A stretch of 10,474 bases of DNA, taken from Tolypothrix carrinoi HA7290-LM1. GTDB lineage: Bacteria > Cyanobacteriota > Cyanobacteriia > Cyanobacteriales > Nostocaceae. The stretch is taken from assembly GCA_019358935.1 (NCBI GenBank), contig JAHHIK010000179.1, positions 1-10,474 on the forward strand, in the 5' to 3' direction. The notes under the pieces are model-generated. The model was given only the letters and a program-made list of their open reading frames with translations. It did no database searches and was not told the DNA's origin. Below are positions 1,622 through 10,474 of the stretch, piece after piece; position 1 is the first letter of the stretch, and each line of letters begins with the position of its first letter. The translations under genes and the position numbers were made by a program.

Positions 1622-4600
1622 CTAGGCAAGCATAACAGCGATCGCTCCTCCAAGTGCTGCGAAAATGGCAGATACAGTCGCGGTTGCAAACAACCACCAA
1701 GCTGCTGATGCTGCTGCTTTACGGGTTTCTTCTGCTTGTCGCTGCGCTTGCTGTTTCACTTCTTCCAAGCGTCGCTGTGCTTCTTGTTGAATGCGTTCAG
1801 CGCGTTGTAGCACTTTGTTACGCGCTCCTTCGATTTGGTCGATAATTCGGTTAGCGTCTTCTTCAGAGATATCCTCACGAGAACTCATAACTGCTACCAA
1901 GGTTTCGCGGTTGAAGGAAGATAGGCGATCGCGCATTGCTTCAAATCCCGCTTGCGGATCGTCGAACATCTGGCGAACATCGCGCTTGATACCATCATAA
2001 TTCAATTCCGGACGTTCCAAAGAGTTAAGGTAGTTACGAATTGTGCCAAAAATACCATCTAGCACACCTTGAATCTGGCGTTGAATACCCCGCACTTGTT
2101 CAACAAACTGCTGCTGCACTGATATCATATTATCAGCAATTTGTGCTGCTTCTTCGTCGGTAATATCTTCGCGAATTTTCAGCAAAGCGATGATTGTCGA
2201 GCGGTCAAATTGGGAAAGACGTTCAGTTATACTTTCCATTCCCACTCGCGGATCGTGCAACAGTAATTGCAAGTCGCGTTTGATACCTTCAGGATTAAGT
2301 TCTTCCTTGCCAGTTCCTCGCAGATACTCTTGCAAATAAGCTTGGAAAGTTTCTACTCTTTGCTGCGTTCTAGTAGCTAAACGACGCGGCGCACGGACAA
2401 TATCGCGAATTGAGGTTTGCACCGAATCGATGACTTGATTGACTTGTTCTTCGCTCAAGTCTTTACGTTGGCTCAGTAGTTTCACCAGCGTATCTCTATC
2501 AACTTGCGACAACCGCCGCCGTAGTGCCATCGCTCCCTCTTGGGGGTTTTCAAACAATCGATTTAAATCGCGTTGAATACCTTCGGGGTTAAGTTCTTGT
2601 TTGCCAGTATTTCGCAGATAATCGGCGATCGCACTCGTCGCTGAGTCGTATTGCTCTTTAGCTTTATCGGCTAAAGCTTGCGGTGCTTGACGAACACTGC
2701 TCCAAGATTGATCAATAGCATCAATCGCTTGATTAACTTGGTCTTCGCTCAAATCTTCTCGCTGACTCAACAATTGTACCAGCGTATCGCGATCAAAGCG
2801 AGACAACCGCGCCCGAATTGAGGAAATTCCCGCTTGCGGATCGTCCAAAAGCGTTTTCAAATCAGCGCGAATCCCATCCGGATTCAATTCTCCTTTGCCA
2901 GTGTTACGCAGATATGACTCTAAATTCAACCACAGCGTTTCTGCTTGATATTTTGCTTGATCTGCCAGTCCTTTGGACTCAATCAAAGCTTGATCGCGTT
3001 GATTTTCCAACTGGTCGAGAATTCTGTCAGCTTCCTCTGGCTGAATATCATTGCGTTGCAGCAGTATATCTCGCATTTCCTGACGGTCAAATTGAGCCAA
3101 ACGCCGAGATAAAGTTTCATAATCCGCATCAGAGTCTTCCAGCAACGGTTTGAAATTCTGCTGAATTGCTTCTGGGGTCAAATCCGCTTTTGGTGTAACT
3201 AGTAAATAACTTTCAACTCGACGTTGTAAGTCTTGTACTATTTCCCTTTCTTCCGCTGCGGTGACTTCTACCAGCACTTGTTGACGGATAACTTCAAGCT
3301 GATTGACAATCCGCTCAATTTCTGCTTGCGTTAACAATCCCCGTTCTTGGAGAATATTAGCAAAATCTTGTTTGGAAAGTCGCTCTATCTCGCGCTTTAC
3401 TGTTCCCGGATCGGCAGATGGATCGTAGAGTACATCACGAAATTCTTCCGCGATTTTTTCTCGACTTAGTTGCCAAGCATAAGTGTTGTGCAGGTAGTTT
3501 TCTACATCAGCACGAATCGGGCTGAAAGGCTGCTTTGGTGTGGGAACTCCTAATTGATCGGCTTTTTCGGTTACTTTATCTTTGGCAGTAGAAAGACTAC
3601 CTAAGATTTTTTCTACATCCAAATCTGACAAATCCGTGCGTCCCATCACTATACCAGTCAGCGCAGTGATTCCCTGTTGCAGAGTTCGCTGAATTGGACC
3701 TGGAGTAGCTTCTTGAGTTGCTCTTTGGTCAGCTTCTTTAGAAGCACGCATCTCGGACATTAACTGATCCACCTTGCGGTTCAGTTCATCTGTCTTAGTT
3801 TGTCCTGGCTGTACAGATTTGAGATATTCCATCAACTCAGCCAAGCGGTCTTGACCGGGTTTGTTACTAACAACCTGTTGCCAAACGCCATATAATGTGT
3901 CCGCAAGTCGGTTAATATCGCGTTTGGAAAGGTCAGTGCGATCGCTTACCAAACTAACAAACTTGTCCCGGTCGATGTTGCGTAAATCTGGACTACCCGC
4001 TAGTGCTTTTAATTGCGGATCGTTGAGCAATTTTTCAAACTCACCCCGAATTTTCGATAAATCGAGTTCAGGGGGACGCACCATTTCTAAGTAATCTTCG
4101 ATATTGTCTCGGATAGTACCTGGGTCAATCGCACTGCCGATTTCTCGGCGTACAGCGGCAGCTGCTGCTTCTGCGGTGGCGACAACTTGATTATTGATCG
4201 CTTTCGCCCCCAATGCGGCGGTAGCCGTCCCCATAATCGCCTGAAAGCCGGATGTTGCGGTATTTACGACCGAGCCAACTAAGGAACCTACCGTAGTTGA
4301 ACTTACCCACACCAACAGCAAAAAGTACGCACCCCAAATTACTAAACCTAAAATCGCTCCCAATCCCGGACTCAAAATTAGGAGGCTCAATTTTACCGCT
4401 AAGAAAGTGGCGATTAATAGAGCGATCGTCACCGTGACTAGCGTCCAAATCCCGACCGCAGTACCAATTTTGCGAATTGTGCCGCCTATACTATCATGAT
4501 TTGAGCTAGAATCCGAGTCTGATTGATGCCCCAGGTAAGTAATACCTGCGGCTACCGAGAGGTTTGTTAAGACTAATTGGATGGCAAAGGCTAGAATCAC

Positions 4601-4747
4601 GCCAGAAATCAAAGCCACAAAAAAGCGCGGTCCTGAAGTCACAACAGATGCCTGTGCTGGCGTAATTGTTGAGGGGTCTACTGGAACCTGTGCCAACCAA
4701 AAGAGCGGCTTGTACAGTCCCAGCATTATTTGTGTACTCTGAAACAT
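1622..4747 (-). CDS. Large membrane protein (1041 aa) with about 3 N-terminal TM helices, about 7 helical repeats and a C-terminal TM helix; function unknown
   Basis: Hydrophobic segments at about aa 42-150 and aa 1015-1040. Repeated motif YLxxTGKxELNPEGIxxDLxxLxxDPQxG...RLSxFDRxTLVxLLSQRxDLSE. RBS-like AAGGAA upstream of the ATG. Confidence 0.9.
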   Translation of the reverse strand: MFQSTQIMLGLYKPLFWLAQVPVDPSTITPAQASVVTSGPRFFVALISGVILAFAIQLVLTNLSVAAGITYLGHQSDSDSSSNHDSIGGTIRKIGTAVGIWTLVTVTIALLIATFLAVKLSLLILSPGLGAILGLVIWGAYFLLLVWVSSTTVGSLVGSVVNTATSGFQAIMGTATAALGAKAINNQVVATAEAAAAAVRREIGSAIDPGTIRDNIEDYLEMVRPPELDLSKIRGEFEKLLNDPQLKALAGSPDLRNIDRDKFVSLVSDRTDLSKRDINRLADTLYGVWQQVVSNKPGQDRLAELMEYLKSVQPGQTKTDELNRKVDQLMSEMRASKEADQRATQEATPGPIQRTLQQGITALTGIVMGRTDLSDLDVEKILGSLSTAKDKVTEKADQLGVPTPKQPFSPIRADVENYLHNTYAWQLSREKIAEEFRDVLYDPSADPGTVKREIERLSKQDFANILQERGLLTQAEIERIVNQLEVIRQQVLVEVTAAEEREIVQDLQRRVESYLLVTPKADLTPEAIQQNFKPLLEDSDADYETLSRRLAQFDRQEMRDILLQRNDIQPEEADRILDQLENQRDQALIESKGLADQAKYQAETLWLNLESYLRNTGKGELNPDGIRADLKTLLDDPQAGISSIRARLSRFDRDTLVQLLSQREDLSEDQVNQAIDAIDQSWSSVRQAPQALADKAKEQYDSATSAIADYLRNTGKQELNPEGIQRDLNRLFENPQEGAMALRRRLSQVDRDTLVKLLSQRKDLSEEQVNQVIDSVQTSIRDIVRAPRRLATRTQQRVETFQAYLQEYLRGTGKEELNPEGIKRDLQLLLHDPRVGMESITERLSQFDRSTIIALLKIREDITDEEAAQIADNMISVQQQFVEQVRGIQRQIQGVLDGIFGTIRNYLNSLERPELNYDGIKRDVRQMFDDPQAGFEAMRDRLSSFNRETLVAVMSSREDISEEDANRIIDQIEGARNKVLQRAERIQQEAQRRLEEVKQQAQRQAEETRKAAASAAWWLFATATVSAIFAALGGAIAVMLA

Positions 4748-5069
4748 GATATTTCCTTCTTAATCGTTTAATTCACTAGAAATTTAAAGATTACGTGAGA
4801 ATAAATTTAGCATCTGTTGCAATACCCAACTAGTGTAAATTTCAGAATCGTGGAATGTAGGCGTTAAGAGCATCTCTCTGAGGTTTGAATCTTCTCTACA
4901 GCGCTGGATATAATTTTGGTAAATTCTCGATGTAGATGGCGATCGCTCACTAATAATCTGCATTTATTTTGACATTAGATATTTTCACCTAGCTTCCTTC
5001 ATCTGCAAATTCCATTTATTTCTATTAACAGCAAATTTATTGCTTTAAATCTGGGCTTGTTATCGCTTC

Positions 5070-5087
5070 GTAACATTTATTTACAAT
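5070..5087 (+). promoter_or_regulatory. HLR1-like RpaB-binding direct repeat upstream of the hli genes
   Basis: GTAACATT-TA-TTTACAAT matches (G/T)TTACA(T/A)(T/A)-N2-(G/T)TTACA(T/A)(T/A) with one mismatch and overlaps a TACAAT -10-like hexamer. HLR1 sites are known at hli promoters. Confidence 0.6.
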
Positions 5088-5988: not shown

Positions 5989-6017
5989 GTACAGACGTTC
6001 CATTGGAACGTCTCTAC
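5989..6017 (-). repeat. GTAG-type REP palindrome
   Basis: Minus strand GTAGAGACGTTCC-AAT-GGAACGTCTGTAC, a 13-bp stem with one mismatch. It overlaps the kinase stop codon. Confidence 0.75.
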
Positions 6018-7135
6018 CTAACTATTCCCACTTTTGGCAAGCGAAGCCAAAAACGCGAACCACCTTCCGGACGAGGTGAATAACCAATTTCCCCTCCCCA
6101 ACGTTCAACAGTAATCCGACAAAAATAAAGTCCCAAACCGACTCTACCGGATCTACCTCTTCCTTGAGAAAACTTTTGGAATAAATTTTGTGCCATTTCC
6201 GGTGCTACACCAGAACCCTCATCATTGACAGTTACTAAAACATATTCCCCATCTTGTTGCAAACCAATTGTCACAACAGACCCCCCAGGACTGTGACGCA
6301 AAGCATTTTCTGCCAGATTTGAAATTACTCTATCCAAACGCGATTTATCACCAACCACTTTCCAGTCTGCTGTCAAGTCAACATTGCCAGCAAGCAATAA
6401 CCGCATTTTGTTCAGCGAAAAAGTAGGGGTTAAAATTTCGATAACTTCTTGTATAGAAATTAAGGCATCCGGTGCTTTATCGACATCAACAGTGAAAGCT
6501 TCCAGCGATTGGACTTCTGCCGAAAATGCATCTAATATTTCCCTAATCAGCATTTCTTGCTTGATAGATTGTTTTCGACCAATTTGTAAACGTTCTTTAC
6601 CCTTTGGTGTCAAGTTTTCAAATTCCAGCAATGCCAAACAGCAATTAATACCGCTTAATTGACCTGCGATATCATGTATAATGCAGTGAATTAAAACTTC
6701 TTTTTTTTGATTCTCTTTTAATAACTGTTGATAAGTTAATTTATTTTCTCTAGCTTTCTGAATTATAGATTGTATCTCTTTGTATTCACCATCTAACGAT
6801 TCGATTAATAAAATTTTTTTATTATTTATACAAATTGCTGAAGCTTCAAAGTAATATTCTTCACCAGTTAAATCTATTTCAGTCCATAAACCTGATTTTA
6901 GTTTCTCTTGATTATTGCTTTGCCAGAATTCTTCAGCATCAATTAAAAAGTTTTCTATAAAGGAAAACTCTTCTTCAGGTATTAATATTTCCATCCCCGA
7001 TGTCACCCCACGACGACAAAAAGACCGCAACCAATTTGGTACGGTTCCAGTAATTCTAAAAGAGTTTACATTAAGTCTTTCTAATACTAAGATATTCAAG
7101 GCTGCGAAAACATCTGCCGTAAGAGACTCGCTCAT
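6014..7135 (-). CDS. Soluble sensor histidine kinase (N-terminal PAS-like domain, HisKA, HATPase_c)
   Basis: H-box IIHDIAGQL (His154), N-box ISNLAENALRHS, G1 DEGSGV, F-box LFQKF, G2 GLGLYFCR. No TM segment. Confidence 0.92.
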   Translation of the reverse strand: MSESLTADVFAALNILVLERLNVNSFRITGTVPNWLRSFCRRGVTSGMEILIPEEEFSFIENFLIDAEEFWQSNNQEKLKSGLWTEIDLTGEEYYFEASAICINNKKILLIESLDGEYKEIQSIIQKARENKLTYQQLLKENQKKEVLIHCIIHDIAGQLSGINCCLALLEFENLTPKGKERLQIGRKQSIKQEMLIREILDAFSAEVQSLEAFTVDVDKAPDALISIQEVIEILTPTFSLNKMRLLLAGNVDLTADWKVVGDKSRLDRVISNLAENALRHSPGGSVVTIGLQQDGEYVLVTVNDEGSGVAPEMAQNLFQKFSQGRGRSGRVGLGLYFCRITVERWGGEIGYSPRPEGGSRFWLRLPKVGIVR

Positions 7136-7217: not shown

Positions 7218-7619
7218 TTACTGATTAAAAATTTTTAGTAATTTTTCCTGAGACAGGCTAGAATCGTTTACTTGTTGTTGAATGACTGAGAGTTGTGTTT
7301 CATCCTTAGTAGCATCTAACAGCAGCACCCAATCTCCTTCCTCTGTCGGGAAGATATGCACATCTGCACAAATCCCGTATTCGGTTTTCATTCGAGGTAA
7401 AAATAAGGGAAAGTCATCCAATGGCAGCAACCCTTCGAGAAAAAAAATTTGCTCTCCTACATTTGTCCCTTTTTCTAAGTTAGTAACTCCGTATGCTGCC
7501 AGCTTACCTCCCCAAGTTAATAAATAACCATCTTTACTTACTAAAAGATAAGCCAAAGAAAGTTGTTCTAACATCAAAGTAAGAACATAAGCAGCAACAG
7601 CAGCGGGGACATTTTGCAT
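7218..7619 (-). CDS. Stand-alone PAS-like domain protein (133 aa)
   Basis: ATG directly abuts the GTPase stop (TAAATG). PAS-like pattern AYLLVSKDGYLLTWG...ADVHIFP...WVLLLDAT followed by a helical tail. The CDS is well supported; the fold is inferred. Confidence 0.8.
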   Translation of the reverse strand: MQNVPAAVAAYVLTLMLEQLSLAYLLVSKDGYLLTWGGKLAAYGVTNLEKGTNVGEQIFFLEGLLPLDDFPLFLPRMKTEYGICADVHIFPTEEGDWVLLLDATKDETQLSVIQQQVNDSSLSQEKLLKIFNQ

Positions 7620-8117
7620 TTATGCCTCCAATATTTGATTAGCAAGTGTTTGAAAAACTTCTTCTACACCCAGCCCAGTTTTAGCGCTGGTTTTAATTAC
7701 AGTCCAGCCACGTTGTATAATCGCATCGATTTCTGCCGTTTCAATTTCCCATTCATCTAGCAAATCTGATTTGTTAAGTACAAGAATAAAGGGAATTTGT
7801 CCAATCGTTTCTTCTACTCTTGTTTGCAGACTGAAGGCTTTTTCTAGGGTGTTGTGTCGAGTTCCATCCACTACGATTAAATAGCCAGACGAACCTCGTA
7901 AATAAGACAGTCGCACTTTTTGAAATTCGTCTTCCCCATAAAGATCCCAAAGAATAAAATTTAACTCTTTGTCTTGAATCTTCACTACTTTTTTGTCAAT
8001 TTTTACACCCACAGTAGTTTGATAGATTTCCGAAAATATGCTATATACAAATTTGGCTACTAAACTTGTTTTACCTGTGGCAAAAGCACCTACCATGCAT
8101 ATTTTTTTTTGAAGCAT
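7620..8117 (-). CDS. Ras/Rab-like single-domain small GTPase (prokaryotic Rup type)
   Basis: G1 GAFATGKTS, G2 YQTTVG, G3 WDLYGE, G4 NKSD, G5 TSAKTG. 165 aa with no C-terminal prenylation motif. Confidence 0.95.
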   Translation of the reverse strand: MLQKKICMVGAFATGKTSLVAKFVYSIFSEIYQTTVGVKIDKKVVKIQDKELNFILWDLYGEDEFQKVRLSYLRGSSGYLIVVDGTRHNTLEKAFSLQTRVEETIGQIPFILVLNKSDLLDEWEIETAEIDAIIQRGWTVIKTSAKTGLGVEEVFQTLANQILEA

Positions 8118-8130
8118 AAAAAATTATCAC

Positions 8131-9888
8131 TTATTTAGGCTTTTCAGATAAAAATACCTTGAAAGATACCCTAGAATTAGATTTTTTTTCTGATTTTATC
8201 GATTTGATGTCTAACGACTCGTTAAAACCCCCTCCTACGGTTTGAAAATTGCTGGCGTTAATTCCAGAAGCGGTTATATAAGATAAGATTTTGTTAGCAC
8301 GGGCTTGGCTGAGTGTCATCTTTTCTTGTTTTCTAACTGCATTCTCATGTCCTATTATTTGAATACGTACATCCTGATGCAGATATTTTGCAGTATTCAG
8401 TAGTTTTTGCATTTTTACTACTAAATTCTGCATTTTATTCTCTTCGCCAGGTAAAAGCTCTGCTGTATTTTCTAAAAAAAAGAGCATATTTTCTTCTATT
8501 TCTTTTTTATATGAATTGAGTTTTTTTAATTCTGGATTTAAAAGATTATTGTATTCAAATTGAGTTATTCCGGGAATAAAATGCCATAATTTTTGTGCTG
8601 ACAAAATCCATTGACGAGGAGCAGAACCTGTAGCGTGAAGAATGCCATTTTCGTCTACATTTAATGATACAGTTTCTGGAGGTTGAAGTAATTGTGCGGC
8701 TCTTTTTGCGGTAAATTGTGGTTGTAAAGATATGTAAGGTTCCCAGTTACTGATGACTTTTTTGGGAGGTATGTTTGCTTGTTCCATTAGCGCTTTTGGA
8801 TCTACTGCTAACGGATCGCGCATTCCCGAAAGAAAATATTTACCGTGTCGCGAACTTGCTTTGGTGACTACAATTCCTGGTTGAGAGTTAAGTTTGTCTA
8901 AATAAGCATTCCAGCGAAGTTGATCTCTAATCGCAAAAAAACTTGCAATTGAGCAGGCGATCGCTATTGTACCTAAGAATGTCCAGGCATAAGTATAATT
9001 CTGTTTGCGTGGCAATTTATATTGAACTTCTAAACAAGCTTCCAGATAAGGCTTACTTGCTGAAAATGGCTGTGTTTCCCCTTGAAATTCCCCAAGTTCT
9101 TTGTTCAACTTCAGGTGAATTTTTTCTATTGCTTCTTGAAAAACTAATCTTAATTCCTCGCGTGCTCTTCCTCGAATAATTCCTGCTAATATCGCTTGAG
9201 GTCCCTCTTCAATCCAAATAGTCAGTTCTCCAAACCTCAAACTTTGCAATGATTCACCTTTTTGCACGCTGAAAGAGTCTTTAACAAAATCCCGGATAGC
9301 AGTCAACATTGCGGAAACCAAATCCGGATCTTGAGCGGCTACTTGCGGCGCTAAAATATGTTGTAGCAACAATCCCGTTTTTTTATGAATTAAAAAAACC
9401 TGCTCTACACGATAAACCATAGTGCGAAGCAGCACAATTTCCGCGAATGATTTGCCTGTACGTTGTGCTTCTAATCTCCACTTCAGGCTCTGTAATGATA
9501 AACTATGTTCCAAAGTTTGATTTAAAGATTGAATCATCTCGTCAAGAGCTGTAGACATAGCCTTGCGAGTAGCTGGTCCGATGACGGGAAAAATCGTTTC
9601 TGAAAGAGTATTTAAATCTTTTTTAACAGAATATTGAATCGCATCTTCGATGGTCGGTACCATTGCTTCACTGAGAATTTTATCTTGCATTGACCGCAAA
9701 ATAATCGCTTCTGGAAGCAAGCGACTGATATCTTCAGCTTGAACTTGAACGTCGTCTAATTTTTTGTATAGTTTGTTAACTTTGGTCGGTTCAAGACCAA
9801 GAAGCAAACTGCGAAGTTCACTTAGTTCATTGCTGGTGGCATTATTTGGGGATTCTTTCGCTATTTCATTTGTGGAATAGTCACTCAT
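8131..9888 (-). CDS. Single-pass membrane protein: N-terminal helical region plus putative longin-like domain, TM helix, two BON-like segments and a C-terminal OmpA-like domain
   Basis: TM segment AWTFLGTIAIACSIASFFAI. OmpA-C pattern IIGH...LSQARA...SGI...G.G...NSRVSF. ATG at 9888 preferred over TTG at 9894 because AGGGG lies 9 nt upstream of it. BON-like call is by eye. Confidence 0.88.
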   Translation of the reverse strand: MSDYSTNEIAKESPNNATSNELSELRSLLLGLEPTKVNKLYKKLDDVQVQAEDISRLLPEAIILRSMQDKILSEAMVPTIEDAIQYSVKKDLNTLSETIFPVIGPATRKAMSTALDEMIQSLNQTLEHSLSLQSLKWRLEAQRTGKSFAEIVLLRTMVYRVEQVFLIHKKTGLLLQHILAPQVAAQDPDLVSAMLTAIRDFVKDSFSVQKGESLQSLRFGELTIWIEEGPQAILAGIIRGRAREELRLVFQEAIEKIHLKLNKELGEFQGETQPFSASKPYLEACLEVQYKLPRKQNYTYAWTFLGTIAIACSIASFFAIRDQLRWNAYLDKLNSQPGIVVTKASSRHGKYFLSGMRDPLAVDPKALMEQANIPPKKVISNWEPYISLQPQFTAKRAAQLLQPPETVSLNVDENGILHATGSAPRQWILSAQKLWHFIPGITQFEYNNLLNPELKKLNSYKKEIEENMLFFLENTAELLPGEENKMQNLVVKMQKLLNTAKYLHQDVRIQIIGHENAVRKQEKMTLSQARANKILSYITASGINASNFQTVGGGFNESLDIKSIKSEKKSNSRVSFKVFLSEKPK

Positions 9889-10008
9889 TGCCAATATCCC
9901 CTAATTTATAGTTGATAATAAGTTGTATTATGTCGTCACTGACAAGGGGAGAAGCAAGTAAAAAAGAAAAAATAACTTTTTTTAACTTTTATCTTGTTCA
10001 TCTGGTGT

Positions 10009-10347: not shown

Positions 10348-10474
10348 GTAAGGATTCAGGCCTAAAGTTAAGGTATTAAAGATGGTGCTTGCATATCAGG
10401 GTTGACCATTGCTTTCATAGCTTGCTCAAAAAATTCAATTACGGAACGTCCTTGGCGACGGCAAGTTTGTATAA
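10348..10474 (-). mobile_element. Right end of an IS66-family insertion sequence (continues beyond the window)
   Basis: Terminal GTAAGGATTCAGG at 10348-10360 (IS66 inverted repeats start with GTAA), lying just after a transposase-like stop codon. Confidence 0.8.
10368..10474 (-). CDS. C-terminus of an IS66-family transposase (partial)
   Basis: IQTCRRQGRSVIEFFEQAMKAMVNPDMQAPSLIP* fits the IS66 C-terminal pattern TCxxxGxxxxxF/Y...PSLLP. Not in the supplied ORF track. Confidence 0.8.
   Translation of the reverse strand, partial: IQTCRRQGRSVIEFFEQAMKAMVNPDMQAPSLIP

Follow-up and report, generated by a model that had tools for sequence, protein, structure and literature searches.

Group 1 Rup proteins closely resemble the eukaryotic Rab/Ran/Ras/Rho group of GTPases, and in 2014 no regulator of them was known, according to the available text of the survey that catalogued them (PMC4316618). 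The gene neighbourhood described there comprises DUFY, a DUFX domain that is often joined to a transmembrane (TM) helix and an OmpA domain, a GTPase that lacks the Gln of the G3 motif, and a kinase or c-di-GMP output. Supplementary table S2 of the same paper contains Nostoc and Anabaena copies. An entry of that survey is all3030 of the laboratory strain Nostoc PCC 7120. In the part of their paper that is available, Wuichet and Sogaard-Andersen noted an N-terminal region with an invariant Gln in the output proteins, and proposed that it replaces the Gln missing from the GTPase. They also treated the Rup GTPases as a separate family that is not coupled to MglB.

Longin domains belong to a different literature. 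The 2013 review by Levine et al. gave the element order that separates longins from roadblocks and, in its available text, described prokaryotes as devoid of longin domains (PMC3747258); the Asgard longins came later. Helix alpha1 is the GTPase-docking face in known longins (PMC3747258 and PMC5216073, as far as these sources are available). Mon1-Ccz1 dimerizes through its alpha1 helices, which also provide the main GTPase site; exchange is abolished when Gly and Thr on alpha1 are changed to bulky residues (available part of PMC5216073).

The stretch that we analysed (10,474 nucleotides, hereafter the window) is an entire contig, C179, of a 7.96-Mb genome that is 99.65% complete. The close relatives that carry names are heterocystous cyanobacteria. 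An operon on the minus strand contains, in order, the 3′ half of DUFY, a DUFX:OmpA gene, a Rup GTPase gene, a 133-aa gene and a histidine-kinase-type gene. The features are as follows.

10348..10474, no strand assigned: end of a multicopy insertion element that interrupts DUFY (identical copies at 6 other contig ends)
10009..10347, minus strand: 3′ half of DUFY, a coiled-coil gene (identified by tblastn with a relative of full length)
8131..9894, minus strand: DUFX:OmpA gene, whole, 587 aa (open reading frame; architecture matches that in the available text of PMC4316618)
9448..9825, minus strand: cytoplasmic N-terminal part, residues 24-149, conserved and presumably helical (conservation profile)
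9031..9420, minus strand: predicted longin-fold domain, residues about 159-288 (AlphaFold2 model with DSSP; Foldseek and VIA-align longin matches)
9271..9327, minus strand: helix alpha1, residues 190-208, which is predicted to be the face for dimerization and GTPase docking (model and conservation; role according to the available parts of PMC3747258 and PMC5216073)
8929..8988, minus strand: single TM helix, about residues 303-322 (hydropathy)
8539..8913, minus strand: periplasmic middle region, probably BON-like judging from relatives (BON matches in 4 of 16)
8176..8478, minus strand: OmpA-like peptidoglycan-binding domain, residues 473-573 (PF00691, E 3.1e-10, above the cut-off)
7620..8117, minus strand: Group 1 Rup Rab-like GTPase, 165 aa (PF00071, E 4e-31)
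7218..7619, minus strand: PAS-like protein, 133 aa (model pLDDT 91; the top Foldseek matches are PAS domains)
6014..7135, minus strand: histidine-kinase-type protein, likely the output (HATPase_c, E 7.6e-26)

The locus is a Group 1 Rup operon of the kind catalogued in 2014. Its members are a split DUFY, a DUFX:OmpA gene with a TM helix, a Rup gene and an output, and it shares with the system in the available text of PMC4316618 the gene order, the DUFX-TM-OmpA architecture, a GTPase without the G3 Gln and a kinase output. It differs in that a gene of its own encodes the PAS-like module and an insertion element divides DUFY; moreover, DUFX is an unknown domain in that text. The GTPase, at 165 aa, lies within the 150-240 aa of Group 1, and a motif survey found that the catalytic Gln after G3 is replaced by Glu. 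The loss of this Gln is not a rule for the whole family, since the residue is kept in 4 of 18 GTPases of a distant second cyanobacterial subfamily and in 2 of 4 that accompany archaeal-type relatives.

Next to the GTPase, the model of the 133-aa protein shows a PAS-like domain whose C-terminal helix is long and bears a Gln (Gln115) kept in 43 of 44 rows. Relatives often carry this protein as one part of a fusion with an output, such as an adenylate/guanylate cyclase in Mesorhizobium. There is also a weak likeness between it and the N-terminus of the kinase (E 0.083). It is a natural candidate for the Gln donor proposed in the available text of PMC4316618.

The insertion in DUFY is marked by an 8-bp duplication and matching terminal repeats at the junctions, and the 5′ half of the gene lies at the end of another contig (C74, about 40615-41008). 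We take the inserted element to be an IS66. Because DUFY is split, the operon is possibly impaired in this strain, where it may be cut from its promoter.

An earlier note, made from the DNA alone, had proposed a longin-like domain at 9031-9414, which on the minus strand corresponds to residues 161-288 of the 587-aa reading frame. All seven segments that it quoted are present (residues 166-180, 189-208, 216-223, 224-231, 234-240, 246-263 and 277-288). The AlphaFold2 model, which covers residues 150-297 and was made with an 87-row alignment, has a mean pLDDT of 85.0 and a pTM of 0.80. DSSP assigns strands at 159-170 and 176-181, a helix at 190-208, strands at 218-221, 224-230 and 234-242, and helices at 246-268 and 275-285, which is the ββαβββαα order that the note had read from the sequence. 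The model has two extras, a short helix at 151-157 before the first strand (block pLDDT about 61) and a short last strand.

Three fold searches of the PDB agree with the model on the longin topology. The check by AlphaFold and Foldseek that the note had suggested turned out in its favour: the first match is the TRAPP bet5/trs23 chain 2j3t_C (E 9.5e-5), followed by an Asgard roadblock, Mon1-Ccz1, MglB and AP-1 sigma3, with Mon1-Ccz1 and AP-1 sigma3 in the top ten. In total, 24 matches have E<=0.001. We also ran VIA-align, once as an unbiased search of 48,161 chains and once as a second look at 991 chains, with results that agree. The best matches have Z 12.6-12.8 over 125-127 residues, whereas models that lack a clear match typically peak at Z 7-8. 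In the larger search, CPLANE/Fuz (7q3d_C) reaches Z 12.6 (rmsd 2.9, 125 aligned), VAMP7 12.3, Sec22 11.8, Mon1-Ccz1 10.8-10.9 and a Lokiarchaeal longin 10.8. The TRAPP chain 2j3t_D has Z 12.7 (rmsd 2.8, 126 aligned). In the smaller search, VAMP7 has Z 12.8, Sec22b 12.5 and Ykt6 12.3, so that SNARE/coat longins tie with GEF longins. The top 12 rows of this search span model residues 12-142 or wider and include both C-terminal helices (Z 11.4-12.8, rmsd 2.5-3.7). A library of viral folds gave nothing at E<=0.001, and its best row is a synaptobrevin (4.1e-3).

We consider the domain to be a longin rather than a roadblock because of its element order, which is the one that Levine et al. assign to longins, with two helices after beta5. 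MglB aligns with Z 10.8 (rmsd 2.4, 107 aligned) and covers model residues 12-120 only; in general, alignments with roadblocks end at model residue 108-121, short of the last helix. The roadblock/LC7 profile PF03259 has no match at the locus, and membership of that family can be rejected. Named longin families also do not include the domain. Pfam has no match for it, and Fuz_longin_1 (PF19036) has none anywhere in the genome. Matches to Fuz_longin_1 below the cut-off occur in 2 of 87 and 4 of 59 family members, the best homologue scoring 24.8 bits against a curated cut-off of 26.1. When the PDB was searched by sequence, with the domain itself, with two profiles and with the best homologue as queries, no longin came up at E<=10; the few matches were unrelated and due to chance. 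Going by the model, residues 159-288 almost certainly adopt the longin fold.

Compared to the longins of Mon1-Ccz1, TRAPP Bet5/Trs23 and Fuzzy-Inturned (5ldd, 2j3t, 3cue, 7q3d), the domain has the same element order, with Z 10.4-12.7 over 123-134 residues. The small conserved residues of alpha1 are alike in eukaryotic longin GEFs, and the Fuz_longin_1 score of the best homologue points the same way. However, identity is 10-17%, and the domain of the window resides in an integral membrane protein with a wall-binding end. We liken the alpha1 helix to that of Mon1-Ccz1 as a helix, not residue by residue. The Mon1-Ccz1 and TRAPP cores each have two different longins, whereas this locus has one gene and could form at most a homodimer. 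The genome, at the completeness given above, contains a single match to the domain, in a search that a very distant second longin would escape. We therefore do not place the locus in the class of heterodimeric longin Rab GEFs.

Among prokaryotic systems, MglB/MglA (3t12, 3t1r) is similar in that MglB belongs to the same superfamily and is a platform encoded beside a small GTPase gene, but MglB is soluble and its roadblock match lacks the last helix. The Asgard longins (8yqg) align with Z 10.8-10.9 (rmsd 3.2, 129-130 aligned). In the Asgard archaeon MK-D1, GTPase genes generally lie outside longin operons (available text of PMC10933270), whereas the pairing seen in the window is tight by gene order.

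The note had also placed the domain before the sole TM helix of the protein, and this is confirmed: 19-residue windows with a hydropathy above 1.3 start only at residues 301-306. The same arrangement holds in relatives: among 80, the domain is followed by a hydropathy peak in 78 and preceded by a window above 1.65 in none. The count of positive charges is uninformative, with 3 Lys/Arg on either side of the helix. Since there is one TM helix and an OmpA-like wall-binding domain after it, the cytoplasmic location given in the note is a sound inference, with the N-terminus inside. It is further supported by relatives in which the domain follows the TM helix of a surface protein or is part of a soluble ATPase-TPR protein. 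Within the OmpA-like domain, the GHxD motif has Asn here and Asp in 47 of 73 relatives, while the Arg is kept in 73 of 73. A Pfam search of the window protein gave no BON match in the periplasmic middle region. Two Dehalococcoidia copies (L076, L081) are just 336-340 aa long; they retain the TM helix and the GTPase, and the OmpA part is absent. By eye, the N-termini of DUFX (window 9448-9894) and DUFY have a similar short motif, Arg-x-x-Leu/Ile-Leu/Phe-Gly, which could possibly be a shared assembly helix.

Across diverse copies, conservation within the domain peaks in alpha1. In a broad alignment of 59 diverse rows, mean column entropy is lower for this helix than for any other of the 8 structural elements (1.30 bits, compared to 2.67 for alpha2 and 2.74 for alpha3). 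Residues 194, 195, 198 and 199 are small; M196 and A199 are invariant, T198 is present in 55 of the 59 rows and F203 in 58. Within the close family, strand beta1 is slightly better conserved than alpha1 (0.48 vs 0.66).

Of 550 matches in GTDB, we examined the loci of the best 80. The GTPase lies directly downstream in 70 of these, so it is not true that the gene is always followed by a GTPase. One of the other ten loci has a GTPase upstream on the other strand, three have contigs that end inside the gene, and six have none across 321-4,127 bases downstream. DUFY is upstream in at least 68 of the 80 loci, i.e., about as often as the GTPase is downstream. The domain, including the distant second cyanobacterial subfamily, is carried by 28 of 201 genomes of the phylum. 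For that subfamily, we examined the loci of 18 of the 31 listed matches; a GTPase is adjacent in 16 and absent at L090 and L095. The type of about 1,205 aa has 7 listed copies, and the one examined (L095) has no GTPase.

Trees of the domain (59 rows) and of the neighbouring GTPases (43 rows) resolve the same three groups, except for one long-branch GTPase (L052). Matching groups are expected of any co-inherited operon, and co-inheritance alone suffices for them. Both trees are unrooted, without an outgroup, and the bootstrap of the domain tree is not settled, so we make no claim about the direction of transfer.

Some loci depart from the usual arrangement. L095 (4920-8528) encodes an orphan copy of 1,203 aa with two BON domains and OmpA, which has the best Fuz_longin_1 score; neither GTPase nor DUFY is nearby, and six similar copies are listed. 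At L092 (3158-4337) there are two tandem Rup genes, and L103 represents two neighbouring Rup operons in one genome. At L075 (2438-4685), the gene right after DUFX:OmpA encodes the PAS-like protein, so that no GTPase separates the two.

Gene order, alpha1 conservation and the matching tree groups lend indirect support to a role for the domain in relation to the GTPase. The earlier note had considered a GEF, a GAP or a docking site. We think that the membrane protein probably offers its predicted longin as a docking platform for the adjacent Rup GTPase. That the domain itself has exchange activity on this GTPase is possible but doubtful. In the mechanism that we propose, two copies of the domain would pair via strand beta3 and helix alpha1, as in other longins and roadblocks, and the GTPase would sit atop the alpha1 pair. 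The OmpA-like end would anchor the protein to the wall, and in this way the state of the envelope could set how the platform is presented. Most likely, such a platform would load the GTPase or hold it at the inner membrane, either in the manner of an exchange factor or as a tether. Switching off would more likely fall to the PAS-like protein, whose conserved Gln115 may replace the Gln missing from the GTPase, and the kinase, as the output, would read the state of the GTPase. Observations against docking include the six GTDB loci and the L090 and L095 loci that lack a GTPase, the tie of SNARE/coat longins with GEF longins, the single longin gene, the Asp missing from the OmpA-like domain, the broken DUFY, and the lack of a GTPase at 24 of 26 archaeal-type loci.

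A GAP resembling MglB would likewise use the domain to dock the GTPase, but would shape its switch regions or lend a residue in trans. The Glu at the catalytic Gln position implies that the GTPase needs help, the MglB fold match given above points the same way, and longins do occasionally occur in GAP complexes (available parts of PMC10933270 and PMC13408092). Position 201 of alpha1, which is Gln in 31 of the 59 rows and Arg in 26, could supply such a residue, although a catalytic residue is unlikely to swap freely between these two. Gln165 is invariant in the close family, but is replaced by Glu, Asp or Ala in distant groups. A better-kept Gln is the one in the downstream PAS-like protein, which belongs to the candidate class in the available text of PMC4316618. 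Overall, a GAP role appears quite unlikely. We also regard it as unlikely that the domain is an adaptor of the SNARE/coat type, which would bind a peptide or helix, for example the coiled coil of DUFY or N-terminal helices of the protein itself, and leave contact with the GTPase to another part of the system. The tie of SNARE longins for the best fold match speaks for this, as do the frequency of DUFY before the gene and residues 99-150, which lie outside the longin and are as well conserved. Most archaeal-type copies, moreover, have no GTPase neighbour, and some occur in STAND-ATPase-TPR proteins. However, the alpha1 conservation peak is found in all three groups, including copies without a DUFY neighbour, and GTPase genes recur beside distant, apparently archaeal copies. 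Levine et al. also noted, in the available text, that most longin or roadblock complexes hold GTPases as well (PMC3747258).

The resemblance to longins might, lastly, be superficial, and the domain a small-molecule sensor of the PAS/GAF/profilin-like class. The operon does feed a two-component-type output, and Asgard longins fused to two-component domains are described in the available part of 10.1101/2020.10.19.343400. However, the 50 rows listed from the 48,161-chain search all contain longins or roadblocks (by title or known identity), and the adjacent 133-aa protein, by contrast, matches PAS domains. We find a sensor highly improbable.

The domain belongs to a large family. Its profile finds 5,503 clusters (50% identity, E<=0.001), so the domain is more than a chance resemblance. 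The top match (P0175) has three copies of the domain, scoring 84-91 bits. Seventeen further relatives include proteins with Ig/PKD repeats, a TM helix and the domain; one of these is named, as a Thermoplasmata archaeon, and it is the only archaeal-type relative with a taxon name. A profile built from these relatives alone gives the window domain 100.8 bits, compared to at most 5.0 for 1,000 shuffles. By sequence, the domain is clearly homologous to the tails of apparently archaeal surface proteins. Nearest neighbours in a language-model atlas are archaeal hypothetical clusters (0.92-0.93); Asgard clusters follow at 0.85-0.88, which is a lead only.

Relative to these apparently archaeal proteins (Ig/PKD-TM-domain, CARDB repeats, STAND-ATPase-TPR), the window domain has the same alpha1 motif. 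However, in the archaeal type a surface module precedes the TM helix and the domain follows it, there is no OmpA or DUFY, and the copies form their own group in the tree. We collected 29 metagenome loci, of which 26 are archaeal-type and 3 are bacterial DUFX. An archaeal origin is backed for 5 loci by neighbours above the cut-off (EF-1 alpha at 2, archaeal MoaA at 1, RFAP synthase at 2) and is assumed for the rest. Rab-like genes are directly downstream at 2 of the 26 archaeal-type loci, with three at L107 and one at L108. The other 24 have no such GTPase in the available DNA, and many of these contigs are short.

To our reading, the gene cluster has been known since 2014 and apparently never tested. 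In a search of openly accessible papers and preprint texts, we found no longin assignment for a DUFX-type domain. The word "longin" is absent from the text and the searched supplements of PMC4316618, and the available parts of PMC10933270, PMC13408092, PMC3521125, PMC4915359, 10.64898/2026.10.19.760177 and 10.1101/2020.10.19.343400 do not describe such a domain. If DUFX is a longin, it is a concrete candidate for a Rup regulator, and would offer alpha1 as a target for mutation and permit an assay with three proteins. A large bacterial family with the longin order, tightly paired with Rab-like genes and related to apparently non-Asgard archaeal proteins, would also weaken longins as a signature linking Asgard archaea and eukaryotes. 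The general point about bacterial longins is not new, because a 2026 preprint already reported, in its available part, that 48% of Asgard longin/roadblock signature proteins are in structural clusters that include bacteria (10.64898/2026.10.28.762692). A more speculative reading, which we judge rather unlikely, is that a membrane-anchored, GTPase-loading longin is an old prokaryotic module, one sequence family across many bacterial phyla and non-Asgard archaea. The Rup operon would then be a working, homodimer-driven, wall-coupled and genetically tractable forerunner of Rab activation by Mon1-Ccz1 and TRAPP.

We now note properties of individual relatives and of the rest of the window. At L107 (1984-4711), three tandem Rab-like GTPases lie behind an Ig-repeat longin-like protein, with a fourth partial match at 4786-5070; L108 (2686-3537) has one GTPase in the same position. 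Each of the L107 and L108 GTPases has an unannotated C-terminal extension of about 100 residues. In AAA_16-TPR proteins (L120:4243-6984, L121, L123, L124, L126 and L127:1823-4504), the longin-like domain occupies about residues 90-235, close to the N-terminus, and comes behind the first part of the ATPase match; EF-1 alpha adjoins two of the loci. P0175 (2,171 aa) and P0325-P0328 are soluble; they consist of repeated helical-CARDB-longin units, with DUF5915 at the C-terminus.

Elsewhere in the window, positions 1622-4747 encode a repeat-rich helical protein of 1,041 aa with hydrophobic ends, for which a family search gave nothing notable above the per-stretch threshold. A short tandem repeat tract with GDK/GGQ repeat frames (1383-1625) lies between two convergent genes.
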